This document shows, in pieces, positions 1 to 11,926 of a stretch of DNA of 11,926 nt (position 1 is its first letter; each line of letters begins with the position of its first letter). Position numbers and translations under genes: made by a program. The notes below the pieces were generated by a model that worked only from the letters and a program-made list of their open reading frames with translations, made no database searches and had not been told where the DNA came from. The stretch comes from a virus: UHGV virus genome UHGV-1578451; one strand, 5' to 3'.

Positions 1-306
1 AATACTTCCTGGTGGGTGCCGCATTGTTGTGAAGTTCTTGTCGTGCCACGTTGAATGTGGCCACTGGCATTCAAACCGATTACTCAACCATTGCTCAAGG
101 GAAGGAAGCCCACCGGCACGCTGAATAACCCTCTCATTCTCGAAGACCTGACGCATTACCGGATCATTAGCCAGCGGCTGAATGGCTGCCGGAACAGCCC
201 CGGTACTGAATGACGCCATTTCTTCTGGTTCAGGCTCAAGCAGAACGCGACCACGCATGAAGAGGTGCATCAGTTCCGCACCTGGACGAAACAACACTAC
301 CCCCAT
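1..306 (-). CDS. hypothetical nin-region phage protein, first 102 codons only (gene runs off the left edge)
   Basis: Minus-strand frame is open from ATG 306-304 to position 1 with no stop (MGVVLFRPGAELMHLFMRGRVLLEPEPEEMASFSTGAVPAAIQPLANDPVMRQVFENERVIQRAGGLPSLEQWLSNRFECQWPHSTWHDKNFTTMRHPPGSI...). It sits directly downstream of ant in operon orientation. It is absent from the ORF table only because no stop falls inside the window. An in-frame TTG at 342-340 overlapping the ant stop is an alternative start. Family not recognised. Confidence 0.4.
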   Translation of the reverse strand, partial: MGVVLFRPGAELMHLFMRGRVLLEPEPEEMASFSTGAVPAAIQPLANDPVMRQVFENERVIQRAGGLPSLEQWLSNRFECQWPHSTWHDKNFTTMRHPPGSI

Positions 307-338
307 ACGAGGGGCTATTTCAGGTGTGAGTAATGCCC

Positions 339-1226
339 TCAATTGTCGCCACCAGCCAGTTCTTTATCGTGGGTGAAACTCCCGTTCCAGGTCACCTTCA
401 TCGGAAGCTTCCCTTTCAGATAGTTTTTGTAGATCCAGGTGGCCCCTTCCCGAAGCAGAACCGGCTGATAGGTGGTAAAGCTGACTGCTGAATTTGGAGA
501 GACTTTGCTGCTTTTCTCAGTGAGGTATTTATCACGCGCGTATGACCGGACACGCCATTGTGCGCTGCGTCCTTCCGGATTGTCGTCATATAACCAGTTC
601 ATCGAAACAAGCCAGGCGCTAATTTTTGAGGTATTAACGCCATTCAGACGTTTACAGAACTGTACTGGGGAAAGCCCATCAGTGAAGAGGCTCTCGAGAT
701 GCTCGATATATTCGGCTTGCTGGTGGGTAAGCGCCTCAGCTTGCTGCTTTGCCTCCATGGCATCCGCCCACGCACGCGCCAGGGTTATTGGATCAGACAT
801 ATTCGGCAGCATGACACCGTGGACCTCACGAAGATTGAAGTAATGATCTTCAAGCTGTTCAAAGAAGTCCCAGGCTAATTCGGTTTCAAGCATTTTTGCG
901 TGGCGGGAGGCGCCGCGCTCAGTCCAAAGATAAAGGCTGCGAGCCTTTGATGATATTTGCACACTGCTGAAAGAGTTGCGCAAATTTTCGACTTCATCAC
1001 CCTCAATTCGAAAGTAATGCTTACCCTCAACAAAACGTATTTTATTGCGGTTAAAGTTATTCGTGATGTTTTGCGCTGTTGTACCGTAGCCGCTTGCTAA
1101 AGATTCCGTAGTCACTACGCGCTGATTGCGATAAGTGATCACCGGCACCGATGAGTGATTAACGGAAATTACTGATGAAGTGCTATTTTTGGGCGTAGCA
1201 GTGCCCATAACATGATGATTGCTCAT
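339..1226 (-). CDS. ant: phage antirepressor (ORF6N-type N-terminal domain plus KilA-C/ANT-type C-terminal domain)
   Basis: ORF 339..1331 trimmed to the ATG at 1226, which is preceded by GGAGAG; the 35 codons upstream overlap rusA and look non-coding. N-terminal half carries an ORF6N-like signature (VITYRNQRVVTTESLA...NFNRNKIRFVEGKHYF...LYLWTERGA). C-terminal half (ITLARAWADAMEAKQQAEAL...KISAWLVSMNWLY) resembles the KilA-C/ANT domain. TGA stop at 339-341. Confidence 0.75.
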   Translation of the reverse strand: MSNHHVMGTATPKNSTSSVISVNHSSVPVITYRNQRVVTTESLASGYGTTAQNITNNFNRNKIRFVEGKHYFRIEGDEVENLRNSFSSVQISSKARSLYLWTERGASRHAKMLETELAWDFFEQLEDHYFNLREVHGVMLPNMSDPITLARAWADAMEAKQQAEALTHQQAEYIEHLESLFTDGLSPVQFCKRLNGVNTSKISAWLVSMNWLYDDNPEGRSAQWRVRSYARDKYLTEKSSKVSPNSAVSFTTYQPVLLREGATWIYKNYLKGKLPMKVTWNGSFTHDKELAGGDN

Positions 1227-1312
1227 ATTCTCTCCATACTCTGATTGTTGCGAAGGGCCTGCACGCCCTTTTCGCTTGCACTTTCCGACATTACTGCCAT
1301 AACGACCAATAT

Positions 1313-1711
1313 TCAACCCACAGCTGGACATATAACCACCTCTTTTTTATATGCCGTTATGGTTATCTCAACTTTTCCCTTCGGTACTATCGGTCCCCAT
1401 TCCACCAGCATTCGCTTAATCTGGCTGTCGTCTTCCCAGACACCCGCATGCGTCAGCGCGTCAAACAGGGCTTTGTTGTAATTATCGATATCCCGGCGGC
1501 GCGCATCCGGCGGGTACAGAGTGATTTCTACCGCTGCCAGTTCAGTCGATGGCTTCGGGAGACGTCGTAATTGCTCAATGATCGCCACGCAGGCAGCGCT
1601 CTGGTATTTACGACCATCAGCGCTAATGAGGTGACGACCGGCCAGCGGCCCCTTGTTAGGAGCGCGTCAGTAAGTGTTCACGCTGGGTGGAAATGGGAGT
1701 ATGAGCCTCAT
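1313..1711 (-). pseudogene. rusA: rusA-like Holliday-junction resolvase interrupted by an in-frame TGA at codon 15
   Basis: From ATG 1711-1709 (GGAGG 6 nt upstream) the frame reads MRLILPFPPSVNTY, then TGA at 1669-1667, then continues in the SAME frame as RAPNKGPLAGRHLISADGRKYQSAACVAIIEQL...PDARRRDIDNYNKALFDALTHAGVWEDDSQI...VEITITAYKK to the stop at 1313. Both sides of the TGA match the RusA family (E. coli RusA: ITLPWPPSNNRYYRHNRG...[31 protein letters not shown]), and the TGA sits where homologs have an aromatic residue (probably TGG Trp). The ORF table shows only the 91-aa GTG-1588 restart fragment (1313..1588). Confidence 0.65.
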
Positions 1712-1833
1712 TAAAAGCCTCCGTCATAATTCCTGAAACATACCTCAACTTTCCCGCTATAGTGACGAACACGTTGAACAACATCCGAAATAGGCGCTAT
1801 ACCGGCAGGGCGATAAAAGACTGTTTCACGCAT
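1711..1833 (-). CDS. small hypothetical protein (40 aa), translationally coupled between the methyltransferase gene and rusA
   Basis: ATG 1833-1831 overlaps the upstream stop (ATGCGTGA) and is preceded by AGGGGG at a 7-nt spacing. Encodes MRETVFYRPAGIAPISDVVQRVRHYSGKVEVCFRNYDGGF. Its TAA stop (1713-1711) shares one base with the rusA ATG (TAATG). Below the size cut-off of the ORF table; no homolog recognised. Confidence 0.3.
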   Translation of the reverse strand: MRETVFYRPAGIAPISDVVQRVRHYSGKVEVCFRNYDGGF

Positions 1834-3187
1834 GAGTTACCCCCTGCATGCTGTCGACAAGACCTTGCGCAATTGTGATAATTTCGCTGGTGGCCGTTCG
1901 TTCCAGCCAGAGTTGATTGATGTTGGCTTTCAGCTTGTTCTGCTGTGATTCATCCAGCATGTCAGCGCCGTCTACCTGGTCGAATACAATTCCAACCTCC
2001 AGCGGCCAGATACGGGACTCGGGAAGCGGATCCGCTACTGGTTTAGCTTTCTCACGGATGTGCATGCGGATCTGGCGAATATTGGACCAACTGGAAACAT
2101 CCAGGCTTCCCATAGCTGCAATGAAATCAGTACTGTTCATGCCATATTCACCAGATGCTTCAAGGGCAACAGTCCGAATACGTTCCGACATATCCAAGCG
2201 CGCAGCAGCGTCATCGAATTCAATCGACAACAGCCACTCATCCACACCGAACAAAATACTCTCACGAATAAGCAGCTTCGCTTTGTCGATCGTTAATGGT
2301 GATACCTGAGTGAATTCCGGTGCTTCGACAGAATCCGCCGCCCAGGTATGCCCAAACTTCGATTCACTGAATGTGTATTCTTCTTTATCGCCGAACGCAG
2401 CTCTAACGCATGCCCACGCCTCGACACCGCTGATATCAAAAATATCTTTCTGGGTAAGTGGCAACTCTGCTTCTGGCTTGTCAGCTACAGATGGTGTGAC
2501 AGTTGCAGGTTGAGACTTGCTGACAGCAAATTGCGCCAAAGTCATAAACGCCTGCCCTTTTGCCTCCAGTTCTGTACGGTTGATATAGCTGAACCGCTCA
2601 CCACGCCATGACTTATCAAATACAGCTATGGCACCGGCAAAAAACGCGCTGGTGGGCTTCTGTTTTTCGTCAGCCGGTATAAACCACACAGGCAGATCGA
2701 ACCCAATGCGCCCGCGAATGAATACAATGTGATCGGCATCTTCCGGCCACCACGTTTCACTCGGCGCGGCTTTTATCAGGAATACATAGCGACCGCCCTT
2801 CTCGCGCTGGTCTGCTGCGTACTTCATGATGTGCGTCATACCAGTGATCGCCTGTTTCTCGTGATACTGCGAACGGCTATACGGTGGGTTGCCATAACCA
2901 GCGCCACCCAGTTCTGTAAGACGTTCAGACCAGTCCTGCGTCAGCGCGTTATCTTCGGCGGTGTACCATGCCGGGCATTTCGCGTTGTCGTCGTCAGCAA
3001 ACAAGTCCAGAACTAATGGACCAAATAGCGCGTTGATCCCCCAAAAAAGCAGATCCGGTGTCCGCCACTGATCGCCAACTTCTTTCAATTCGTGAGCTGG
3101 TTTGCTACGCAGTGCCGCCAGCGCCTGGCAATATTTATTGGTATCATGAACGAAACCCCGAATTTTCTGGCAGTGAGTAATCAACAC
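1826..3187 (-). CDS. phage Dam-family N6-adenine DNA methyltransferase fused to an uncharacterised ~300-aa C-terminal domain
   Basis: Continuous minus-strand ORF with TGA stop at 1826-1828. Residues ~97-250 of the maximal ORF carry the phage Dam-family signature: DQWRTPDLLF, LDLFADDDNAKCPAWY, GNPPYS (NPPY catalytic motif), FLIKAAPSETWW, FIRGRIGF. The following ~300 residues (FDKSWRGERFSY...AQGLVDSMQGVTHA) match nothing I recognise. The maximal ORF starts at ATG 3361, but its first 58 codons overlap the 3' end of the O-like gene in another frame and look non-coding. I place the start at GTG 3187 (44-nt overlap with O); TTG 3088 is also possible. No candidate has a good Shine-Dalgarno sequence. 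Confidence 0.75.
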   Translation of the reverse strand: MLITHCQKIRGFVHDTNKYCQALAALRSKPAHELKEVGDQWRTPDLLFWGINALFGPLVLDLFADDDNAKCPAWYTAEDNALTQDWSERLTELGGAGYGNPPYSRSQYHEKQAITGMTHIMKYAADQREKGGRYVFLIKAAPSETWWPEDADHIVFIRGRIGFDLPVWFIPADEKQKPTSAFFAGAIAVFDKSWRGERFSYINRTELEAKGQAFMTLAQFAVSKSQPATVTPSVADKPEAELPLTQKDIFDISGVEAWACVRAAFGDKEEYTFSESKFGHTWAADSVEAPEFTQVSPLTIDKAKLLIRESILFGVDEWLLSIEFDDAAARLDMSERIRTVALEASGEYGMNSTDFIAAMGSLDVSSWSNIRQIRMHIREKAKPVADPLPESRIWPLEVGIVFDQVDGADMLDESQQNKLKANINQLWLERTATSEIITIAQGLVDSMQGVTHA

Positions 3188-4010
3188 TCTGGAAGTTTGC
3201 GCGGCTGGCTGAGTTAGTCTCCCATTTGCCGTTAACGCGTTCAGGCCGGCCAGCACTGGACCATTTGGTCGCGCTTTGCAGGTAACCAGGGAAGTTTTTT
3301 GGAATGAACAGAGTTGCCGGGCGGAGGTATTGCGCCTGCTCGCTATCACGCCAATCGGCATTTTTGTAATCCACTACCAGGCACAGGTCATCAACCGTGA
3401 ATTGTTCCCGAAGACGGGCGCGAATATTCTCCAGCGACGTACTGCATACCTGGTAGCGTGAGCCAGTTGTCTGGTTCAGGTAAGACAAGACCTGTCTGGC
3501 CTGATCAGTAATCACAACCTCAGGGTCTGGTTGCGCAGCAACCGGACAAGAGGGTTTTGAAGTTACTTGTGGATCTTGTTTTGATTTTACTGACGGATCC
3601 CCGCCAGATTCTGACGGGTCAAAACCACCGTTTTTGCCAGATTTCGACGGGTCAGTTTTTGAGGCGTCAAATTTTGATGCGTCAGATTTTGATGTGTCAG
3701 AATCTGACAGTTGAGAAAATGCGGCAGTCTGAAGTTTCGCCACATTCAGGCGATACACGTTCGAAGCATTACGGTTACCATTACGGCGCTGTGTACGCGT
3801 GAGCCAGCCATCTTTTTCAAGCTTTGCGATTGCCGTTCTGATAGTGCTCGGGCCCGCGCCAAGCTGGCGAGCAATAGTTTCAATTGACGGCCAGCACACA
3901 CCTTCATCGCTGCTGAAGTCAGCAAGGCGAGCCATGATCGCAACACTGGACAACTTCATGCCCGACGCTGCGCAACCATCCCATACGTAGCCGGTTAATT
4001 TAGTGCTCAT
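3144..4010 (-). CDS. replication initiation protein, O-like (N-terminal winged-helix DNA-binding domain, repeat linker, C-terminal phage replisome-organiser domain)
   Basis: ATG at 4010, TGA at 3144-3146, 288 aa. N-terminus (SSVAIMARLADFSSDEGVCWPSIETIARQLGAGPSTIRTAIAKLEKDGWLTR) is a winged-helix/HTH of the type seen in phage replication initiators. C-terminus (VITDQARQVLSYLNQTTGSRYQVCSTSLENIRARLREQFTVDDLCLVVDYKNADWRDSEQAQYLRPATLF) resembles the conserved phage replication-protein C-terminal domain. A low-complexity linker between them is encoded by the iteron-like repeats. Position after cro/cII matches lambdoid gene order. Confidence 0.8.
   Translation of the reverse strand: MSTKLTGYVWDGCAASGMKLSSVAIMARLADFSSDEGVCWPSIETIARQLGAGPSTIRTAIAKLEKDGWLTRTQRRNGNRNASNVYRLNVAKLQTAAFSQLSDSDTSKSDASKFDASKTDPSKSGKNGGFDPSESGGDPSVKSKQDPQVTSKPSCPVAAQPDPEVVITDQARQVLSYLNQTTGSRYQVCSTSLENIRARLREQFTVDDLCLVVDYKNADWRDSEQAQYLRPATLFIPKNFPGYLQSATKWSSAGRPERVNGKWETNSASRANFQSVDYSLPENSGFRS
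3585..3713. repeat. iteron-like array of ~15-bp direct repeats inside the O-like gene (putative phage replication origin)
   Basis: Plus-strand units: AGATTCTGACGGGTC (3606-3620), AGATTTCGACGGGTC (3639-3653), AGTTTTTGAGGCGTC (3654-3668), AAATTTTGATGCGTC (3669-3683), AGATTTTGATGTGTC (3684-3698), AGAATCTGACAGTTG (3699-3713), plus a degenerate copy at 3585-3599. An AT-richer stretch (3556-3590) follows in the direction of transcription. Lambda places its ori iterons in the same position, inside the O linker. Confidence 0.55.
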
Positions 4011-4019
4011 GATCGTCCG

Positions 4020-4346
4020 TTATCTCCCTGAACTTTTGCCTGAAATGCTCAAGTGGGCTGAAGCATTCGTGTGGATAGCCATCTCGCAGGTAGATAACGC
4101 GCTGTGTTTCTGGCTCCCAGCGGATAACACGGACTGGCACTCCGCGGTGATCTTTGAACCTTCGGTTAAGTTCGCGCACAGGCGTTTTGCCCTCCGGTTG
4201 TAGACCCCCACAATTGAAACCGCCCTACTGTGGTTACACGGAACCCAGCGGTTTGATAATCTGCGTTCATACCGAAACAACGGAGTACCCGAAACCGGGA
4301 TCATCCTGAGTTGCGGTAGACGGTTAAAAGCCGTTAAACTGTTCAT
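4020..4346 (-). CDS. doubtful small basic protein (108 aa) filling the gap between the CII-like and O-like genes
   Basis: ATG 4346-4344 lies 5 nt after the CII-like stop and the TAA at 4022-4020 lies 9 nt before the O-like ATG, so the ORF fits the operon exactly (MNSLTAFNRLPQLRMIPVSGTPLFRYERRLSNRWVPCNHSRAVSIVGV...). However 7 of 15 Arg codons are rare (AGG/AGA/CGG) and the composition is Ser/Arg-rich, as expected for a non-coding frame. Kept at low confidence. Confidence 0.2.
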   Translation of the reverse strand: MNSLTAFNRLPQLRMIPVSGTPLFRYERRLSNRWVPCNHSRAVSIVGVYNRRAKRLCANLTEGSKITAECQSVLSAGSQKHSALSTCEMAIHTNASAHLSISGKSSGR

Positions 4347-4351
4347 GCGGA

Positions 4352-4918
4352 TTATTTCTCCATACTCGAAGAGTTGTTCGCCAAGGCGCCCGGAGCTGCA
4401 CACTCGCGGGCGTCACTCTTTTCTGGCGCGCAGAAAACACGGAATAGCAGCGTCAAATGCTCCTGCCACTTAGCCATTACCTGATAACTGTTCTCTTCAA
4501 TCTGCTCACGTTCTGCCGGATCAATAACCCCGTCAGCGGTTGCCTTACGCAGGTACTGCGAGTGTTTACCAATCCATTCGATTGACTCCATCAGGCGCTG
4601 ATTGATATCGCCGTTATCAAGATCATCAACTTCCACCAGCGGAACGAAGACGCCTCCACTACGGCGGGCTATCGCATCGGTGACATACTTAGTACCGCTT
4701 GCATCCTGAAGCACCATCGCCCACTCAAGCGGGAAAATTTGATCACCTTCGTTACGCAGTCTGTTGTAGAGCGCATCCGTTGAGAGTTTTCCAGCGCGAT
4801 ACAGGCCAAGCCATTCAGCGGCTTCGGCATAACCGCCCGGCATTTCGGCAATCGTTCTTTTGATTGCCGCCACCAGCCAAGCCGATTGACGCTCTACCTT
4901 CCAGTGTTGTTTATCCAC
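4352..4918 (-). CDS. CII-like early regulatory protein (YdaT / phage CII CP76-like family)
   Basis: Immediately downstream of the cro-like gene on the same strand; TAA stop at 4352-4354. The region VAAIKRTIAEMPGGYAEAAEWLGLYRAGKLSTDALYNRLRNEG is reminiscent of YdaT-type proteins that follow YdaS-type Cro in Rac-like prophages. Start placed at GTG 4918, which is preceded by AAGGGG at a 6-nt spacing; the maximal ORF starts at TTG 4954, 8 nt after the cro stop and without a Shine-Dalgarno sequence. Confidence 0.65.
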   Translation of the reverse strand: MDKQHWKVERQSAWLVAAIKRTIAEMPGGYAEAAEWLGLYRAGKLSTDALYNRLRNEGDQIFPLEWAMVLQDASGTKYVTDAIARRSGGVFVPLVEVDDLDNGDINQRLMESIEWIGKHSQYLRKATADGVIDPAEREQIEENSYQVMAKWQEHLTLLFRVFCAPEKSDARECAAPGALANNSSSMEK

Positions 4919-4962
4919 GGTTAACCCCTTGATTCTGTGGTTACTTAAAATCAATTTGCGGT

Positions 4963-5157
4963 CTATTTTTTTTCATAAAGCTCAGGGTGAAAAACTAAGC
5001 CACCGCCAGTGCGATATGCCGCTTCAGCAGCCCGACCTTTCGGAATGAGGCGCCCAGGCCTATTGCGCCATTGGTAAACGGCTTCACTGGTAATGCCGAA
5101 AAATTCGGCAACTCTTTCGGCATTGCCAAAGTAATTTTCAATATCGTCAGTTGTCAT
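4963..5157 (-). CDS. cro: Cro-like HTH repressor (YdaS family), first gene of the early-right operon
   Basis: 64 aa, ATG 5157-5155 preceded by AGGAGG. Sequence NAERVAEFFGITSEAVYQWRNRPGRLIPKGRAAEAAYRTGGGLVFHPELY matches the YdaS-type Cro pattern (HTH followed by G-G..HPEL). Transcribed divergently from the CI-like repressor across an 86-bp operator region. Confidence 0.8.
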   Translation of the reverse strand: MTTDDIENYFGNAERVAEFFGITSEAVYQWRNRPGRLIPKGRAAEAAYRTGGGLVFHPELYEKK

Positions 5158-5243
5158 GATACCTCCTTAGCTAAGTTTGATTAGATATTAATTATCAATC
5201 TATCTTTGGTCAATAAAAACTAAGATTACTTAGTCCTTTATTT
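5158..5243. promoter_or_regulatory. immunity switch region between cro and cI: PR on the minus strand (TTGACC-17-TAATAT) with operator-like inverted repeats; PRM not resolved
   Basis: On the minus strand, -35 TTGACC (plus coordinates 5208-5213) and -10 TAATAT (5185-5190) are separated by 17 bp, about 28 nt upstream of the cro ATG. Operator-like elements: CTAAGTTTGATTAGAT (5171-5186), CTAAGATTACTTAG (5220-5233, 5-bp inverted arms), the palindrome CTTAGCTAAG (5166-5175), and TAGAT-N11-ATCTA (5182-5202) inside the PR spacer. Confidence 0.6.
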
Positions 5244-5885
5244 GTGAATGGTGCTTCAATGGAAACGGTTGGGCAGCGTATTAAGTCCCTCAGACTGATA
5301 ACTCGAACATCACAGAAAGAGCTTGGGAAGTTCTGCGGAGTGAGTGATGTTGCGGTTGGGTATTGGGAAAAAGATATAAATTTACCGGGTGGGGAATCAC
5401 TGGCGAAACTTGCAAAATTCTTCAATACATCAATTGATTACATCCTATATGGCACCGAATTTGAGGGTAACCTCATTACAAAAATGCGCAGGGTCCCTGT
5501 AATTTCATGGGTTCAAGCTGGTCAATTTACAGAATGTAAGGCTGCTGAAGTTTTCAATGAAGTGGATAAGTGGGTAGAAACGTCCTTAAGGGTTGGCGAT
5601 AGCTCATTCGCGCTGGAAGTTAAAGGGGACTCGATGACAAATCCTAACGGACTTCCCACTATTCCTGAAGGCGCAACCGTGATTGTAGATCCAGATGCAG
5701 AGCCATTTCATGGCAAAATTGTCGTGGCCAGAATAGATGGAACCAACGAAGCGACAGTAAAGAAACTCGTTATTGATGGCCCACAAAAATTTTTAGTCCC
5801 TCTAAATCCACGCTATCCCAACATCCCGATAAATGGTAACTGCCTGATCATCGGCGTCGTCAAAGGCGTTCAATACGAACTTTAA
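5244..5885 (+). CDS. cI: CI-type prophage repressor (N-terminal XRE-type HTH plus C-terminal S24 LexA-like autopeptidase domain)
   Basis: N-terminus QRIKSLRLITRTSQKELGKFCGVSDVAVGYWEKDINLPGGESLAKLAKFF is a classic HTH. C-terminus carries the S24 serine motif GDSM and the downstream Lys pair (VARIDGTNEATVKKL), and a candidate Ala-Gly cleavage site lies in VQAGQF. Divergent from cro. Start is either GTG 5244 or ATG 5259 (METVGQ...). Confidence 0.9.
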   Translation: MNGASMETVGQRIKSLRLITRTSQKELGKFCGVSDVAVGYWEKDINLPGGESLAKLAKFFNTSIDYILYGTEFEGNLITKMRRVPVISWVQAGQFTECKAAEVFNEVDKWVETSLRVGDSSFALEVKGDSMTNPNGLPTIPEGATVIVDPDAEPFHGKIVVARIDGTNEATVKKLVIDGPQKFLVPLNPRYPNIPINGNCLIIGVVKGVQYEL

Positions 5886-5907
5886 AACATAGCTAATCCC
5901 ACCTAAG

Positions 5908-5940
5908 CACCAAGCTAATTAAAGTTTGGTGTTTTTTCTT
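5908..5940 (+). terminator. rho-independent terminator downstream of cI
   Basis: Stem CACCAA (5908-5913) pairs with TTGGTG (5926-5931) around a 12-nt loop, followed by TTTTTT (5932-5937), 23 nt after the cI stop. Confidence 0.6.
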
Positions 5941-5967
5941 GACCATAAAACTAAGTTAAGTTAGATT
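5939..5967 (+). promoter_or_regulatory. PL-like early-left promoter (TTGACC-17-TAGATT) overlapped by an operator copy
   Basis: -35 TTGACC at 5939-5944, a 17-bp spacer, and -10 TAGATT at 5962-5967. The 16-mer CTAAGTTAAGTTAGAT (5951-5966) is a 13/16 match to the PR-side operator at 5171-5186. It lies ~95 bp upstream of the first plus-strand early gene. Confidence 0.45.
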
Positions 5968-6061
5968 TCATTCATCAACAGCGAACAGGCAGGACGCCCA
6001 CGAAGTAGCCGCCGGTGGCGTATGAATAACCGGATGATTCGCACATGGCAGGAGATTGGAT

Positions 6062-6430
6062 ATGGATGACAGTTTCGAAAATCAACGAGATGCCTGGCTT
6101 GTGGTGATTGAAGCAGCAAAAACTGCATTAAGCCAAGTTGAAAGTAGTAGCTACAGAACAGTTAAACAAATGGCATTGGGTTCTATTATCTATGCCTTTG
6201 AAATGCTGGACTTTGATTTTGAAGCCACGAGCCTTCCGTCAGAACAGCATGAAAAGATGAATAGAGAAGCCGCCGCAGCCTATATCGGCGTAGAGGCGCA
6301 AACATTAGCTAATTGGGCTAGCACAGGAAAGGTTCGTATACCTTTTTTAAAAATCGGCAGAAAGGTTACTTATCTAAAAAGTGATTTGGACGTCTATCTT
6401 GCCTCATCGAAGGCAAGTACCACAAGGTAG
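6062..6430 (+). CDS. hypothetical DNA-binding protein with C-terminal excisionase/MerR-type HTH (HTH_17-like); first gene of the early-left operon
   Basis: ATG 6062 preceded by GGAG at a 7-nt spacing (the ORF table starts at TTG 6056). C-terminal REAAAAYIGVEAQTLANWASTGKVRIPFLKIGRKVTYLKSDLDVYL matches the excisionase-family HTH pattern; the acidic N-terminal ~60 aa is unassigned. It occupies the slot held by N in lambda but has no Arg-rich N-terminal motif. Confidence 0.65.
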   Translation: MDDSFENQRDAWLVVIEAAKTALSQVESSSYRTVKQMALGSIIYAFEMLDFDFEATSLPSEQHEKMNREAAAAYIGVEAQTLANWASTGKVRIPFLKIGRKVTYLKSDLDVYLASSKASTTR

Positions 6431-6499
6431 TTTAGGTACCTACCACCGCGCCTGATGTGGTTAAAAGCAGGCCAAAGCTATAACAAGTAACTCCCTGTT

Positions 6500-6548
6500 C
6501 TGGCGGCCCGGTGTTTTCCCGTTTGTCCGGTAACCGCCAGCCTTTTTC
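6500..6548 (+). terminator. rho-independent terminator downstream of the HTH gene
   Basis: CTGGCGG (6500-6506) pairs with CCGCCAG (6534-6540), with an inner CCGG/CCGG 4-bp extension, followed by CCTTTTTC (6541-6548). Confidence 0.55.
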
Positions 6549-6968
6549 AGGGAATAACAGCCGGTCACGGTAAGTATTTCGCAGAGTGCTTACCGGGACT
6601 GGAAGAGTTAGCACTTGGAGACGGTCCTTATAAATGTCCTGGACAGTGGCGGTACCAGCACTGACAACAGCGGCAGACGTTCAACTGTGTAAACGGAGAG
6701 ATGCCAGCTCGCTCGACGGCAGTGACGGCGGGAAGTAGACCGCTGACAGCTGGGAAAGACCAGCACACAACGATGAGAGCATTGACGAGCAAGGCATAAG
6801 TGCTGGTTCGATTCCAGACAGTCCCATTCAGTTGGGAGGGTTGGGCAGGGAAAAGGTTCATTCGATTCGGACACCGGCAGTGCTCTCTTCGTTGTGGTGA
6901 AGTGCAACCCTTAGAGGTAACCAGAAGATAGCATCTGGCGCCACAACCTTATTGCTGTGTGTAGTCTT

Positions 6969-7040
6969 GGCGGTACCAGGGTCTTCAACCTTATGCAAGG
7001 GGGACGAAGATAATGTTCTACCTCGGTACCGCCCTTTTTA
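6969..7040 (+). terminator. terminator-like composite stem-loop ending in a T-run, at the end of the ORF-poor region
   Basis: GGCGGTACC (6969-6977) is the exact reverse complement of GGTACCGCC (7025-7033), which is followed by CTTTTTA (7034-7040). The 47-nt loop can form nested helices (GTCTTC/GAAGAT, CCTT/AAGG). Unusual because the closing helix is long-range. Confidence 0.4.
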
Positions 7041-7203
7041 CGCAACAGAAAAGGGCATCACCGGGCGACGGGCTCATAACCCAATCCACCCGGGCAAAAA
7101 GAAAGCGGTCTCTCAAGCCGCCAACCAATGCAGGTGCCCTTCTCTGTTGTGTATGGATAAACTAACTTTTTAGCGTCTGTGCAGATGCGCTGAGGAACCG
7201 AGA

Positions 7204-8121
7204 ATGAATAATCCGTTTTTCAAAAATATGTTGGTGTACCGCCTTAGTCGCGATTTCACCATCAACCAGGAAGAGCTGGAACAGCAGCTTGAACTATTTC
7301 GCTTCACTCCATGCGGTAGCCAGGATATGGCAAAAACCGGTTGGGTATCACCACTGGGTCAGCGGTCAGATTGCTTGCATCACACTGTCAATAATCAAGT
7401 GTTGTTGGTTATTCGCCGGGAAGAAAAAATACTGCCATCTCCTGTCATTGCTGAAGAACTACGCCAGCGTGTGGCGCGTCTGGAATCCGATCAGGGGCGT
7501 CGCCTCAAAAAAACTGAGAAAGATTCGCTGCGTGATGAAGTGTTGCACTCCCTGCTTCCTCGGGCGTTCTCCAAAAACTCGACTGTTAGTTTGTGGATCA
7601 ACATCACCGACGGTCTGATCATGGTTGATGCTGCCAGCGCCAAACGTGCCGAAGACTCACTGGCCCTGCTTCGTAAAACTCTCGGTTCTCTCCCGGTGGT
7701 ACCGCTGACTATGGAAGCGCCGATCGAACTAACTATGACCGACTGGGTTCGTTCTGGTAGTGCGCCTGCTGGCTTTGGCCTGGGTGATGAAGCCGAACTG
7801 AAAGCCATTCTTGAAAATGGCGGTATCGGACGCTTTAAAAAACAGGCTCTGGTCAGCGACGAAATTCATGTGCATCTGGAAGCTGGCAAAGTAGTTACAA
7901 AGCTGTCTATCGACTGGCAACAGCGCATTCAGTTCGTTCTTTGCGATGACGGCAGCATCAAGCGCCTTAAGTTCTCTGATGAGCTGACAGAACAAAACGA
8001 CGATATCGACCGTGAGGATGCGGCTCAGCGGTTCGACGCTGACTTTGTTCTGATGACCGGCGAGCTTATCTCTCTCATTAACGGATTAACAACCTCTCTC
8101 GGCGGCGAAGCCAAGCGATAA
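7204..8121 (+). CDS. rdgC: recombination-associated protein RdgC homolog (phage-borne)
   Basis: 305 aa, ATG 7204 preceded by GAGGAA. Closely resembles E. coli RdgC along its whole length ([144 protein letters not shown]) but is clearly diverged from the chromosomal copy as I remember it. Confidence 0.9.
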
Positions 8122-8229
8122 ACACCAGGCAACAATTACCCCCATAAGCATGGGTTGGGTTGCTGCACGCTAAATTCAGCAATTCATTAATTTAATGGCG
8201 CGGTGCAGCGCGCCAATATGGAGAAAACC

Positions 8230-8769
8230 ATGAGCTACATTCAGACATTATCCGGCAAACATTTTAATTACCTCGATATCCAACAGGACGATATCGTGAT
8301 CGAAGATATCGCTACCGCGTTGTCTCATATCTGCCGCTTTGCAGGGCATCTTCCTGAGTTTTACAGCGTCGGCCAACATAGCGTTTTAACCAGCCACCTC
8401 GTTCCGCAGGAGTTTGCATTAGAAGCCCTGCTTCATGATGCCGCCGAAGCCTACCTGCAGGATATACCCTCACCGCTTAAGCGCCTGTTACCTGATTACC
8501 AGGTGATCGAAGCTCGCGTAGACGCAGCTATTCGCCAGAAATTTGGCCTACCGACGGGGCAACACCCAACCGTGAAATATGCCGATCTGGTGATGCTTGC
8601 CAGCGAACGCCGCGATTTTGAGATTGACGAAGGTTCCATTTGGCCATGCCTCGAGGGAGTTGTCCCAACGGATTTATTCATTATCAACCCAGTTCGTCCT
8701 GGCCAGTCATACGGCATGTTCATCAATCGCTTTAACGAATTGATGGAGCAGCGCCAATGCGCCGCATGA
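8230..8769 (+). CDS. HD-domain phosphohydrolase (YfbR-like 5'-deoxynucleotidase type)
   Basis: Start placed at ATG 8230, preceded by GGAG at a 6-nt spacing (the ORF table starts at GTG 8203). HD-superfamily metal-binding motifs are present: H..R...GH (ALSHICRFAGH), the HD dyad in EALLHDAAEAYLQDIP, and a downstream D (ADLVMLASERRDFE). Confidence 0.75.
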   Translation: MSYIQTLSGKHFNYLDIQQDDIVIEDIATALSHICRFAGHLPEFYSVGQHSVLTSHLVPQEFALEALLHDAAEAYLQDIPSPLKRLLPDYQVIEARVDAAIRQKFGLPTGQHPTVKYADLVMLASERRDFEIDEGSIWPCLEGVVPTDLFIINPVRPGQSYGMFINRFNELMEQRQCAA

Positions 8770-8933
8770 AGGTAAAAGAACTCGTAGCGGAGGCGTTTGC
8801 CTCCGTTGCTGAATTGCCACCAAAGCATGCACTGCTTATGCGCGAAGTCGCCACCAGACTGGACGCTACGTTCGCAGCATTAAAAGAGTCTCTGGTGCAA
8901 CTGGAACAGGAACGTAAAGGTAAAACGCCATGA
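8766..8933 (+). CDS. small hypothetical protein (55 aa), translationally coupled
   Basis: ATG 8766 overlaps the HD-gene stop (ATGA) and the TGA at 8931-8933 overlaps the next ATG (ATGA). Encodes MKVKELVAEAFASVAELPPKHALLMREVATRLDATFAALKESLVQLEQERKGKTP. Below the ORF-table cut-off. Confidence 0.45.
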   Translation: MKVKELVAEAFASVAELPPKHALLMREVATRLDATFAALKESLVQLEQERKGKTP

Positions 8934-9184
8934 CCGTATTTGAATATCTCCAGGCTCATCCGAATACCACCAGCGGTGAAATCGCCAAAGGTATGAACAA
9001 AAAGACACCCGCGGTCGCTGGCGCATTATCGCAACTCTATGGCACCGGCCGGATCGTGAAGTCTGGTGTTCGCAAGGGCATTCCAACATACCGTGTTAAC
9101 GATATGCCGTTTGGGTGCAGTAACAGCCTAACCATGATGTTTAACCAGCTATTAAACACAGCCAGAAAGGGAGCAGCACAATGA
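8930..9184 (+). CDS. hypothetical small phage protein, winged-helix-like
   Basis: 84 aa; ATGA overlaps at both ends. TSGEIAKGMNKKTPAVAGALSQLYGTGRIV looks like an HTH / winged-helix recognition segment. No family assigned. Confidence 0.6.
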   Translation: MTVFEYLQAHPNTTSGEIAKGMNKKTPAVAGALSQLYGTGRIVKSGVRKGIPTYRVNDMPFGCSNSLTMMFNQLLNTARKGAAQ

Positions 9185-9525
9185 GTAAATCTCTGAACGC
9201 ACGTTGCATCCGTCGCTGGACCGTCGAATTTAAAGACCTCTGCGACTCGAAACACAGTCCGTACTGGCGTAAGCACCACCTTCGCAGTTACATCCGGGAA
9301 TGTGCCCTGACTACCGCTGATTGCATGGTAGAGCGTATGGCAGAGGATAATGCGATGGTAGATTTTCAGGAGACTAATCGAGGGTGGTCGCCGGAGTTCT
9401 CTGCCTGGTACCACGAACGCCGTGAACAGTATCTCAAAGAAGCTCGTGACTATCTGAACGAAGACGCCACCAATGACGAGATCGACGAGGAAATCCAGAA
9501 CGAGCTGGAGGCCTGGAATGACTAA
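9181..9525 (+). CDS. hypothetical phage protein with acidic C-terminus
   Basis: 114 aa; ATG 9181 overlaps the previous stop (ATGA) and is preceded by AGGGAG. C-terminus is strongly acidic (NEDATNDEIDEEIQNELEAWND). No family recognised. Confidence 0.6.
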   Translation: MSKSLNARCIRRWTVEFKDLCDSKHSPYWRKHHLRSYIRECALTTADCMVERMAEDNAMVDFQETNRGWSPEFSAWYHERREQYLKEARDYLNEDATNDEIDEEIQNELEAWND

Positions 9526-9991
9526 CAGCCCAATGACAGCACTCAACAAACAGGCGCTGCGCAAATTAGCAACTGATGCGCACGAGCTTGGCATCATCAA
9601 GCGTTACACGAAAGGCATCGAGGCTAATAAGAGATTCGTTGCCATCGCTACTCCTTTGACTTTTCTGGCGCTACTGGATGAGCTGGAAGCCGCAGAGAAG
9701 CGCATAGCAGAACTGGAGGCGAATAAGGGTAAGCCAGTGATGTTTATTGATGGCGATATCTCCGCATCTGACGCCGAGAAACTTGCAGAAGTTATTCGTG
9801 AAATGGGACGACGCACCAGCGCCTGCATTACAGGAGGAAATGGAAGTCGGGAAGTGGCGGTGAAACAATTCGATGACTTCCAGATTGTCCACTATGGCGC
9901 TACCGAGGATTACGCGAAAGGTTATATAGACTGCCAGAACAACTACAACAAAGCGCTTGCCGCCGCTGGCATTGGCGTGAAGGGGGAGTGA
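9517..9991 (+). CDS. hypothetical phage protein with central coiled-coil segment (possibly Ead/Ea22-like)
   Basis: Start placed at ATG 9517 (GGAGG 7 nt upstream; overlaps the previous gene by 8 nt); the ORF table starts at GTG 9473. ALLDELEAAEKRIAELEANKGK is a coiled-coil motif that I associate with Ea22-like early-left proteins; this is recalled, not searched. Confidence 0.6.
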
Positions 9992-9994
9992 GAG

Positions 9995-10270
9995 ATGAGC
10001 AAATTTACAGACGTACATGACCTGTTAACCGCGTACCAGAAACAAGCTCGTAAGATACCACCTAAGGGTGTTTATGCCTCAAGACATCGGCAGGTTGAGG
10101 TAAACGCGGCCCACGTGCGAAAGATAATGCGTAAGCGTCGGCGGTCAGTCGGCAAGTCAAATAAACTCGGATGTCGCTTTACGGCGGAAATGCGCGTAGC
10201 ACTGATTTGCGATATGAATTTTTGGGCTCTGGTATGTCGCTCTAACCGTAATCAGGAGCATGCATCATGA
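9995..10270 (+). CDS. hypothetical small basic phage protein
   Basis: 91 aa; ATG 9995 is preceded by GGGGAG. Its TGA stop (10268-10270) overlaps the next ATG (ATGA). Basic stretch KIMRKRRRSVGK. No family recognised. Confidence 0.55.
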   Translation: MSKFTDVHDLLTAYQKQARKIPPKGVYASRHRQVEVNAAHVRKIMRKRRRSVGKSNKLGCRFTAEMRVALICDMNFWALVCRSNRNQEHAS

Positions 10271-11019
10271 CAACTAACCACCCGGCGCACGGTCCTGTAT
10301 CACTCGAGCGCCTGCACCAGATAAGCGAAATACTCAGCAAAGCAGCAGCACAAAGCGACGGCGGTAATCTCGGCTACGCAATGGCTGATGCAGTGAAGGT
10401 TATTGATGGGGCTATTGCAGCGTTTAGCTCTGAGCCACAACGAAACCCTGTGTTGACCTATGCGGATAGTTATCGCGATATGGCTGAGCGCGGAGTTGAA
10501 TCTATCCCGGTCTGGAGCGTAATAATTGACCTTGAAAGAAACATCGCTCCACTCTACACCGCCCCGCCAGCGCCGGTAGTGCCAACGTTCGATGAATGGC
10601 TGGCAATTCGCGGTGATAAGCCACTTGGTTGGGTTAAAGACGCGATGCGTGAATCGTATGATGCTTGCCGCGCCGCCATGCTTCAGCATGATCCAGTTTG
10701 CACATGCCCTAGTGGTGACGGTTCGCTACGCTGGCCGTGTCCGGTGCATCCTGGCAACTCTCCGGTTACTCCGGATGGTTGGGCTTTGGTGCCTAAGAGG
10801 CTAACCGCCGAGAACGGCGCAAAGGGTGTGCTGTCCGGTGAGTTTTCAGAAACGAAATTTATAAACTGCCCAGAGTGTTTTGGTGATGATGAATGCGAAA
10901 CATGCGACGGCAGCGGTCGAATTGAGATAACAGTGCCAGTCAGTTGGACGAACATCAAGGCCATTTGGGCTAAAGGTGTCGAGCATTTCGAAGCAGCACC
11001 TCAGCAGGAGAATGTATAA
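10267..11019 (+). CDS. hypothetical phage protein with C-terminal DnaJ-type CxxCxGxG zinc-finger motifs
   Basis: 250 aa; ATG 10267 is preceded by AGGAG. C-terminal cysteine cluster CTCPSGDG...WPCPVHPG...CPECFGDDECETCDGSGR contains paired CxxC(xGxG) units typical of zinc ribbons / DnaJ-like zinc fingers. Confidence 0.65.
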   Translation: MTTNHPAHGPVSLERLHQISEILSKAAAQSDGGNLGYAMADAVKVIDGAIAAFSSEPQRNPVLTYADSYRDMAERGVESIPVWSVIIDLERNIAPLYTAPPAPVVPTFDEWLAIRGDKPLGWVKDAMRESYDACRAAMLQHDPVCTCPSGDGSLRWPCPVHPGNSPVTPDGWALVPKRLTAENGAKGVLSGEFSETKFINCPECFGDDECETCDGSGRIEITVPVSWTNIKAIWAKGVEHFEAAPQQENV

Positions 11020-11593
11020 CGTGAACAATTTAATGATCGACCTTGAGTCTATGGGCAAAAAACCGAATGCCCCTATCGTCTCCATTGGTGCCGTGTTCTT
11101 CGATCCGCAAAGCGGTGAACTGGGTCAGGAGTTTTACACCGCCGTTAACCTTGAAAGCGCTATGGAGCAGGGAGCGGTGCCGGATGGTGACACTATTCTG
11201 TGGTGGTTAAGACAAAGCTCAGAAGCACGATCAGCAATCTGTGTTGATGATGCGATGCCGATATCGTCTGCCCTATCTGAACTGAGCCATTTCATTAATC
11301 GGCATTCTGATAACCCAAAATATTTAAAAGTTTGGGGCAATGGAGCTACTTTCGACAACGTTATATTGCGCGGCGCATATGAGCGCGCCGGCCAAGTTTG
11401 CCCGTGGCAATTTTGGAACGATCACGACGTCAGAACTATCGTCACATTAGGCAGAGTGGTGGGTTTCGATCCAAAGCGAGATATGCCATTCGATGGGGTT
11501 GCACATAACGCACTGGCCGATGCGCGACATCAAGCAAAATACGTGTCCGCGATCTGGCAGAAGTTGATTCCGGCCACCAGCAGCGACCTGTAA
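11012..11593 (+). CDS. DEDDh-family 3'-5' exonuclease
   Basis: Exo I motif MIDLESMG, Exo II motif VWGNGATFDNVIL, Exo III motif GVAHNALADARHQAKY (H-x4-D). Start is ambiguous: ATG 11012 (AGGAGA immediately upstream), GTG 11021 or ATG 11033; the ORF table gives GTG 10976. Confidence 0.8.
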   Translation: MYNVNNLMIDLESMGKKPNAPIVSIGAVFFDPQSGELGQEFYTAVNLESAMEQGAVPDGDTILWWLRQSSEARSAICVDDAMPISSALSELSHFINRHSDNPKYLKVWGNGATFDNVILRGAYERAGQVCPWQFWNDHDVRTIVTLGRVVGFDPKRDMPFDGVAHNALADARHQAKYVSAIWQKLIPATSSDL

Positions 11594-11631
11594 TTTCCCC
11601 TGGGTGCAGCCAGGTTGTATGGAGAATGTCT

Positions 11632-11904
11632 ATGAATACTTTGTTTTTACTTATGGCTGAGTTCAACACGCCTAACATCGAGCTGTCAGCTGTATGCCAA
11701 AAGTATTTCGGTATGAGCCCTAACACAGCAGAAGCGAAAGCAAATGCCTGTCAGTTACCTATCCCAACTTATCGTGTAGGAACATCGCAGAAAGCAAAGC
11801 GCTGCATCAACATTCAGGATCTTGCTGAGTATATAGACCAGCGGCGTGAAGAAGGCAGAATTGAATGGGAAAGAGTCAGAACGAACAAACAGAAAAATAG
11901 TTGA
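11632..11904 (+). CDS. PrtN-family small DNA-binding protein in the excisionase position
   Basis: Start placed at ATG 11632 (GGAGA 6 nt upstream), giving MNTLFLLMAEFNTPNIELSAVCQKYFGMSPNTAEAKANACQLPIPTYRVGTSQKAKRCINIQDLAEYIDQRR. The MNT.FLLMA N-terminus and overall pattern match the pyocin-activator PrtN family as I recall it. It is the last gene before the expected integrase just outside the window. Confidence 0.6.
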   Translation: MNTLFLLMAEFNTPNIELSAVCQKYFGMSPNTAEAKANACQLPIPTYRVGTSQKAKRCINIQDLAEYIDQRREEGRIEWERVRTNKQKNS

Positions 11905-11926
11905 GTTCCGCACCGATAAAAAAAGA

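Follow-up and report, generated by a model that had tools for sequence, protein, structure and literature searches.

The question raised by UHGV virus genome UHGV-1578451, of which a stretch of 11,926 nt (here called the window, meaning the whole stretch analysed) was examined, is why the Chi octamer, GCTGGTGG, occurs in it so often, and what the sites may do for the virus. The window corresponds to the early part of a lambdoid prophage, with nin region, replication, immunity, early-left operon and xis. It is an instance of the "no Rec module, high Chi" class of lambdoid phages described in 2013 and 2025; the phenomenon itself, with its orientation rule and its dependence on RecBCD, has already been published. 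As argued below, it is likely that Chi was selected in this element so that RecBCD entering the right cos end would turn from a nuclease into a RecA loader, thereby aiding phage growth.

Chi sites and their orientation relative to cos

An exact search found nine copies of Chi in the window, three on the plus strand and six on the minus strand. A sequence-only reading of the same DNA had listed seven. All seven are real, but two further sites, at 2648-2655 (plus strand) and 4633-4640 (minus strand), had been overlooked, and the site placed at 8966-8973 lies one base further on, at 8967-8974. The nine sites are as follows, the active orientation being that readable from the right cos end.

349-356, minus strand: Chi, active orientation, 7 nt upstream of the DUF968 start codon; coding strand of the ORF6N/antirepressor gene, codons Ala-Gly-Gly; kept in five of the six relatives aligning there.
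719-726, plus strand: Chi, inactive orientation; template strand of the ORF6N gene, Thr-His-Gln-Gln; kept in 7/7 aligned relatives.
1402-1409, minus strand: Chi, active orientation; coding strand of rusA, Met-Leu-Val-Glu; kept in 10/10 relatives.
1886-1893, plus strand: Chi, inactive orientation; template strand of the Dam-type methyltransferase gene, Ala-Thr-Ser; phage LLS differs by one base.
2648-2655, plus strand: Chi, inactive orientation; template strand of the methyltransferase gene, Pro-Thr-Ser; kept in phage LLS.
4633-4640, minus strand: Chi, active orientation; coding strand of the YmfL/CII-like gene, Pro-Leu-Val-Glu.
4870-4877, minus strand: Chi, active orientation; coding strand of the YmfL/CII-like gene, Trp-Leu-Val-Ala; kept in phage LLS.
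8967-8974, minus strand: Chi, active orientation; template strand of an 84-aa early-left gene, Thr-Thr-Ser; kept in 9/9 aligned relatives.
11574-11581, minus strand: Chi, active orientation; template strand of the DnaQ-like 3'-5' exonuclease gene, Ala-Thr-Ser; kept in phage LLS.

Two hundred dinucleotide-preserving shuffles of the window gave a mean of 0.38 Chi and a maximum of 2, a mean in agreement with the random expectation of about 0.4 proposed earlier. Markov models of order 2, 3 and 5 predicted 0.9, 1.2 and 2.8 sites, respectively, and the observed to expected ratio (O/E) at order 2 was 10. Chi is the top-ranked octamer of the window, with nine copies against seven for the next. The 24 one-mismatch variants, when pooled, were seen 14 times against about 9 expected and are not clearly enriched, hence a general enrichment of Chi-like sequences was rejected and the excess is specific to the exact octamer.

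The orientation of the sites was read from near-identical DNA extending beyond the window. Over all 11,926 bases the window has 99.97% identity to metagenome scaffold ENA ERZ28659166 (loci L095 and L100), and the near-identical contig continues leftward from the window with Q, a second methyltransferase, holin, endolysin, spanin, Nu1, GpA, gpW and a lambda-type portal. The gene order is lambdoid, with divergent cI/cro, an O-like initiator and a nin region in the window, and Q, lysis genes and cos-terminase in the contig. In the near-identical copy (L095/L100) a lambda cos lies just upstream of Nu1, about 6.05 kb to the left of window position 1. It has the same 12-nt cohesive end as lambda, GGGCGGCGACCT, followed by cosB in the lambda polarity, the cosN/cosB alignment having 87% identity over 260 nt. 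The window itself runs in reverse of the lambda map and is divided into two arms.

1-5157, minus strand: early-right (PR) arm, with Cro, YmfL/CII-like, DUF4222, O-like Rep, Dam-type methyltransferase, RusA, ORF6N antirepressor and the start of DUF968.
5244-11904, plus strand: early-left arm, complete from CI to Xis, as defined by Pfam, PHROGs and NCBIfam scans.

Lambda genetics has established that terminase holds the left end after cos cutting (summarised in PMC12315714). The strand that RecBCD can read from the right cos end is the minus strand of the window, and six of the nine sites are so oriented. Seven of the nine lie in the PR arm, the part of the window nearer the right cos end. From cos to xis, that is, across the right-terminal 18 kb formed by L100 and the window, there are 15 Chi, 11 active and 4 inactive. 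The class criterion is, per genome, at least eight Chi in the lambda-active and at most six in the inactive orientation; the right 18 kb alone falls within these limits, as does the related whole prophage of E. coli strain 1943 described below, with 14 and 6. Within the stretches of the element that were covered, density was 0.83 Chi/kb in the right 18 kb versus one site in the 3.6 kb beyond cos. The two early-left sites, 8967 and 11574, are on the template strand of their genes and fit the cos rule rather than a coding-strand rule. A rule based on theta replication, with Chi pointing toward the origin on both sides as around oriC, was rejected, as all four sites to the right of the origin iterons (the cI side) have the opposite orientation.

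The pattern recurs in ten mosaic relatives, integrated at four chromosomal sites in several enteric hosts, where the equivalent region holds 0.65 to 1.1 Chi/kb. Most Chi of the window are kept among them; sites 1402 and 8967 are present in every aligned relative, and 1402 persists in L010 as well, although the aligned parts of that relative share only about 77% identity with the window. After collapsing orthologues, about 49 distinct Chi remained in the ten relatives, 36 active versus 13 inactive (p=0.0014), a test that is indicative only, since orthologues were imperfectly collapsed and the loci are related to one another. Chi is likewise abundant in modules that the window lacks; one of them, a Dcm-like methylase module (L005 2531-4348; L009 3678-5558), has five Chi in about 1.8 kb, all on the active strand.

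The best match among phages is LLS, isolated by Zheng, Casjens, Davidson, Amundsen and Smith in 2025 (PMC12315714), which has no Rec module and 23 Chi, 20 of them lambda-active, in a cluster toward the right end. A recount reproduced the published figure (20 active and 3 inactive). LLS aligns with 28% of the window at 78.5% identity in megablast, and at about 75% across 2526-5968 in blastn. Whereas only 15% of the aligned octamers are conserved in full, Chi is intact at three of its five aligned sites (2648, 4870 and 11574).

Rec modules of lambdoid phages are located in the early-left operon, and this operon is wholly inside the window, from cI to xis. Pfam, PHROGs and NCBIfam scans of all open reading frames (ORFs) from cI to xis disclosed no Red-beta, RecT, Erf, Sak, Sak4, Exo, RecE, SSB, Gam or Abc2, which bears out the earlier remark that no gam-like RecBCD inhibitor is visible. 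RdgC, next to cI, and a DnaQ-type nuclease, next to int, have been discussed by Zheng et al. (PMC12315714) and are not counted as Rec-module proteins. The largest early-left protein without an assigned function, orf250, was examined as a hidden recombinase and had no Pfam, NCBIfam or PDB sequence match. Its structure models (mean pLDDT 46 with no alignment, and 54 with a 49-sequence alignment) were too poor for a fold search, while its relatives are modular accessory proteins of DUF551/DUF550/Lar type.

The mechanism proposed here is that Chi serves lytic growth. RecBCD would enter at a free double-strand end, namely the right chromosome end after terminase has cut cos, and would meet a correctly oriented Chi within a few kb. 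There degradation would stop and RecA would be loaded, so that the phage DNA would be protected, and recombination with sister phage genomes would produce the concatemers needed for packaging. Reduced degradation by RecBCD and RecA loading had also been proposed from the sequence; this is the published model for the class, and for the present element both the entry of RecBCD at the right cos end and the benefit of Chi to growth would follow by analogy with lambda genetics and with the LLS experiments.

Host, and Chi density relative to host chromosomes

The host is probably a Citrobacter-like enteric bacterium, and Citrobacter freundii is the species suggested by sequence comparison. A protein identical to orf250 is named Citrobacter freundii by its source. 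Genome contig L006 carries two-thirds of the window at 99.8% identity, and in its lexA-plsB flank the identity to E. coli is only about 83%. Among complete E. coli genomes none has the whole window, the best reaching 66% coverage at 93.5% identity. Exact 50-mers of the window had no match in a collection of species-representative genomes, and the source-like contig was reached via identical proteins. An enteric host had already been proposed from the Chi content, and Citrobacter loci do have about the Chi density of E. coli: nine chromosomal rdgC loci of Citrobacter hold 48 Chi in about 187 kb (0.26/kb), where chance would give about 0.03/kb. This density above chance implies that the octamer would be under selection in Citrobacter too. 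Chi activity is said, from work of the Smith laboratory, to be conserved among enteric bacteria.

The density of Chi in the window, 0.75/kb, is well above that of host chromosomes. For E. coli, 1008 Chi sites, about one per 4.6 kb, are quoted in PMC12315714, within the range of one per 4-5 kb assumed earlier. Across 79 enterobacterial rdgC-type loci (1.49 Mb) the mean was 3.3 Chi per 11.9-kb window, or 0.30/kb, and nine or more Chi were reached in only 2 of 595 such windows; these slide in 1-kb steps and therefore overlap, and the loci, which came via a search with the phage RdgC, are nearly all apparently chromosomal. The closest complete E. coli relative of the element is a prophage of 37.5 kb at yecE in strain 1943, which has 20 Chi (0.53/kb, order-2 O/E 6.95), against 0.24 Chi/kb and an O/E of 2.99 in 41.7 kb of its host flanks. 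Thus the excess over the host average, claimed at first for the window only, extends to a related whole prophage. Within the latter, Chi density is 1.41/kb in the DUF968-rep-cro arm (PR, replication/nin) versus 0.31/kb in the structural genes.

Alternative origins of the excess and the reverse-oriented sites

A first alternative is that Chi accumulated in the prophage state, either because it helps repair of collapsed chromosomal forks or by drift toward host oligonucleotide usage, with nothing gained for lytic growth. It does not exclude selection in the lytic state, but as the explanation of the excess it seems unlikely. One argument for it is positional: at yecE, narP-ccmH, pncB and zur-lexA the predominant Chi strand of the prophage is the majority Chi strand of the host flanks, by 17 vs 6 (L001, L004, L006 and L008). 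Judging from the map of E. coli K-12, this majority strand presumably is the one preferred in the replichore. Decay is hinted at by a nonsense codon in rusA, and Zheng et al. (PMC12315714) warn that Chi would build up in cryptic prophages as it does elsewhere in the chromosome; it has also been suggested that Chi might lower the cost of a prophage to its host (Bobay et al., PMC3784561). Against this, the density is not equal to that of the host but 2.5 to 3.5 times higher, and Chi appears concentrated in the ori-to-cos arm instead of being evenly spread. LLS, which is virion-derived and plaque-forming, has the same pattern and depends on RecBCD, and lambdoid prophages bearing Gam avoid Chi though they also reside in chromosomes.

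A further argument came from the positions at which Chi could occur. By synonymous choice the encoded proteins of the window permit 18 Chi, and nine of these positions (50%) are filled, 4/8 on the coding strand and 5/10 on the template strand. In long ORFs of enterobacterial chromosomes (78 loci) Chi is found at 24% of the permitted positions, 29% on the coding and 10% on the template strand. The tripeptides that permit Chi on the template strand ([S/P/T/A]-Thr-Ser, Pro-Pro-Ala and x-His-Gln-x) number 10 in the window's coding sequence of about 10.4 kb, or about 1.0 per kb, as against 0.35/kb in the enterobacterial chromosomal ORFs. This excess of tripeptides hints that selection for Chi may also have shaped the amino-acid sequences of the window.

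A second alternative, that Chi is a by-product of coding, is very improbable. It holds that the octamer owes its frequency to favoured enteric codons, CTG-GTG (Leu-Val) on one strand and ACC-AGC (Thr-Ser) on the other; indeed three sites are in the x-Leu-Val-x frame and four in the x-Thr-Ser frame, and the commonest Leu codon is contained in Chi (PMC12315714). As 87% of the window is coding, synonymous codons were shuffled within each gene, keeping the proteins and the codon usage of each gene. The expected number of Chi was 1.26 with this within-gene shuffle, 0.88 with a pooled one and 0.57 with shuffled codon order, and none of 3000 replicates reached nine under any of the three nulls. Both strands are enriched when taken separately, the plus strand with 3 versus 0.22 expected and the minus strand with 6 versus 1.04. 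The synonymous shuffles and the enrichment per strand led to rejection of the codon-usage explanation, and in the same sense the codon and amino-acid usage of lambda is nearly that of LLS, yet lambda is without Chi (PMC12315714).

A lucky window, or copies of one repeated element, can practically be dismissed: the flanks of sites 349 and 4870 are somewhat alike (TTGxCGCCACCAGCCA), but the flanks of the nine sites otherwise differ, the sites are in seven genes and in different reading frames (on which grounds a repeat-element origin was rejected), no shuffle reached nine Chi, and mosaic relatives as well as non-homologous modules show the pattern again. As causes of the Chi excess, codon bias and chance are excluded.

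Several observations weigh against selection of Chi for RecBCD entry at the right cos end. Owing to the apparent strand match at the four integration sites, selection in the prophage state and in the lytic state cannot be separated. The premature stop in rusA means that this copy of the prophage may be decaying. Three proteins, orf250, orf114 and orf91, have no assigned function, and a novel recombinase or inhibitor could conceivably be among them. Last, sites 719, 1886 and 2648 are reversed, although they are conserved and more numerous than chance predicts (3 vs 0.22), and entry at the right end alone does not account for them.

All three reverse sites lie in the ori-cos interval. When LLS and the strain 1943 prophage are pooled, 7/9 reverse sites fall in this interval versus 13/34 forward sites, for which p is roughly 0.06 by our own estimate, the sites not being independent. 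A speculative and rather unlikely explanation is that the reverse Chi form a second functional set, which would stop RecBCD entering at the free tail of rolling circles that extend from ori toward cos. The ori-cos arm would then be a two-way trap, with selection filling half of the permitted positions and enriching the Thr-Ser tripeptides. If true, such a trap would guard both kinds of phage DNA end.

Gene content of the window and its place among known systems

The early-left arm encodes, in order, a LexA-like CI, an HTH_17 protein, RdgC, an HD phosphatase, small ORFs, Ead/Ea22, orf91, orf250, a DnaQ-like exonuclease and a PrtN-like Xis. Genes of the two arms that are discussed in the text are located as follows.

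1313-1711, minus strand: rusA, with TGA at codon 14 (1668-1670), where the E. coli 1943 relative has TGG (Trp); the remainder is intact.
3144-4010, minus strand: O-like replication initiator gene, with HTH_36 and Phg_2220_C domains.
7204-8121, plus strand: RdgC, passing the NCBIfam RdgC equivalog cut-off.
11021-11593, plus strand: Rv2179c/DnaQ-like 3'-5' exonuclease, in the early-left arm.

The putative origin is inside the O-like initiator gene and consists of six iterons with 15-nt spacing at 3603-3714. The full 132-aa RusA is encoded in the 99.97% identical scaffold L095, hence the stop codon of the window is either a very recent inactivating mutation or a sequencing error. A 114-bp intergenic spacer (1712-1825) separates the stop of the methyltransferase gene from the start of rusA in the window, in L006 and in L095, whereas these genes overlap in the E. 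coli relatives.

With the RdgC encoded in the chromosomes of some 79 Enterobacteriaceae species the phage protein shares about 70% identity, which suggests that this RecA-modulating gene was taken up from a host fairly recently. To find it in a phage that seems to rely on RecA being loaded at Chi is curious. Between cI and rdgC, at about 6043-7040, is a slot for variable cargo in a rexAB-like position, the usual seat of defence or moron genes; its flanks, 6434-6560 and 7041-7161, are kept in all relatives. In the window the slot (6561-7040) holds only a 99-aa ORF (6608-6907, minus strand) with a partial match to a PHROG of unknown function. In the relatives it is occupied, for example, by a 293-aa BRCT-domain protein, by hypothetical proteins of 215 aa and 166 aa, or by a zf-C4_ClpX-like protein, or else YfdP/YfdQ replace RdgC. 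Scans of the window for tRNA genes and Rfam families gave no match, and a T-arm-like string near 6805-6820 is not a tRNA.

In the copies at zur-dinF-lexA (L006 14429-15700; L095 16374-17700, just past the right end of the window) host-side genes come directly after the PrtN-like excisionase. No integrase was called there beyond the excisionase, at the place where the relatives at yecE, pncB and narP have one; the integrase of these copies may be elsewhere or lost. In L100 (18121-20172) only a 232-aa GpA nuclease fragment was called at the position of lambda A, the large terminase; in relative L101 this gene is complete (640 aa). Disruption of the terminase is possible in this copy, and the prophage would then be defective.

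The closest known system is LLS. Both have genes for an O-like Rep, a Dam methyltransferase, a cII-like protein, cI, an HD phosphatase and a DnaQ-like exonuclease, neither has a Rec module or an anti-RecBCD gene, and in both Chi is the top octamer (for LLS as published in PMC12315714), is mostly lambda-active and clusters toward the right cos end, in the present element apparently so over the stretches covered. They differ in that LLS has E. coli K-12 as host, where that of the window element is Citrobacter-like; LLS has YfdP/YfdQ in place of RdgC and lacks the RusA gene that the window has in its nin region; and the share of inactive sites is 3/23 in LLS and 4/15, from cos to xis, in the present element. 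LLS was grown as a phage, whereas the window element is known only as a prophage. The comparison of plating on recBCD hosts that the sequence-only reading had suggested is already published for LLS, which grows worse on delta-recBCD, recB and recC hosts and well on recD (PMC12315714). In the same work 68 of 314 enterobacterial lambdoid phages were without a Rec module, and 62 of these 68 had at least eight Chi in the active orientation.

An over-representation of Chi in lambdoid phages and prophages without recombinases and RecBCD inhibitors was described by Bobay, Touchon and Rocha in 2013 (PMC3784561), with a median O/E of 3.1. Chi was concentrated in the interval separating the replication genes from the packaging site, with a density as much as threefold that of the E. 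coli core, and phages encoding Gam or Abc2 avoided it. The window agrees with this Rec- Inh- class in the lack of a strand-annealing protein and of Gam/Abc2, and in the over-representation of Chi (trinucleotide model) and, apparently, its concentration between replication genes and terminase. With an O/E of 10, and of 7 for the related whole prophage, it is at the high end of the distribution. Orientation was not analysed in that study, in whose text neither "orientation" nor "oriented" appears.

Chi was discovered in lambda red gam chi+ mutants, which share with the element a lambda-type cos and the lack of Red/Gam; they need RecBCD-RecA recombination for packaging, and this is stimulated by Chi that points toward the right cos end (cited in PMC12315714). 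They are laboratory mutants with one or a few Chi, in contrast to the window, which is natural and has Chi at half of the permitted positions. Phage P1 also has many Chi (50 in 94.8 kb, the top octamer) and requires RecBCD (PMC12315714), but it is unrelated, its prophage is a plasmid and its packaging is of the pac-type headful kind.

The value of the finding lies in annotation, as the element can be described as a Rec-less, probably Chi-dependent lambdoid prophage; the measure of Chi saturation and the conserved reverse-oriented sites are two small additions to what was known of the class. The pattern is extended to a prophage, probably of Citrobacter, with a true lambda cos. On the reading favoured here, it would be a natural example of a virus that recruits a host repair enzyme via DNA signals instead of carrying its own recombination system.

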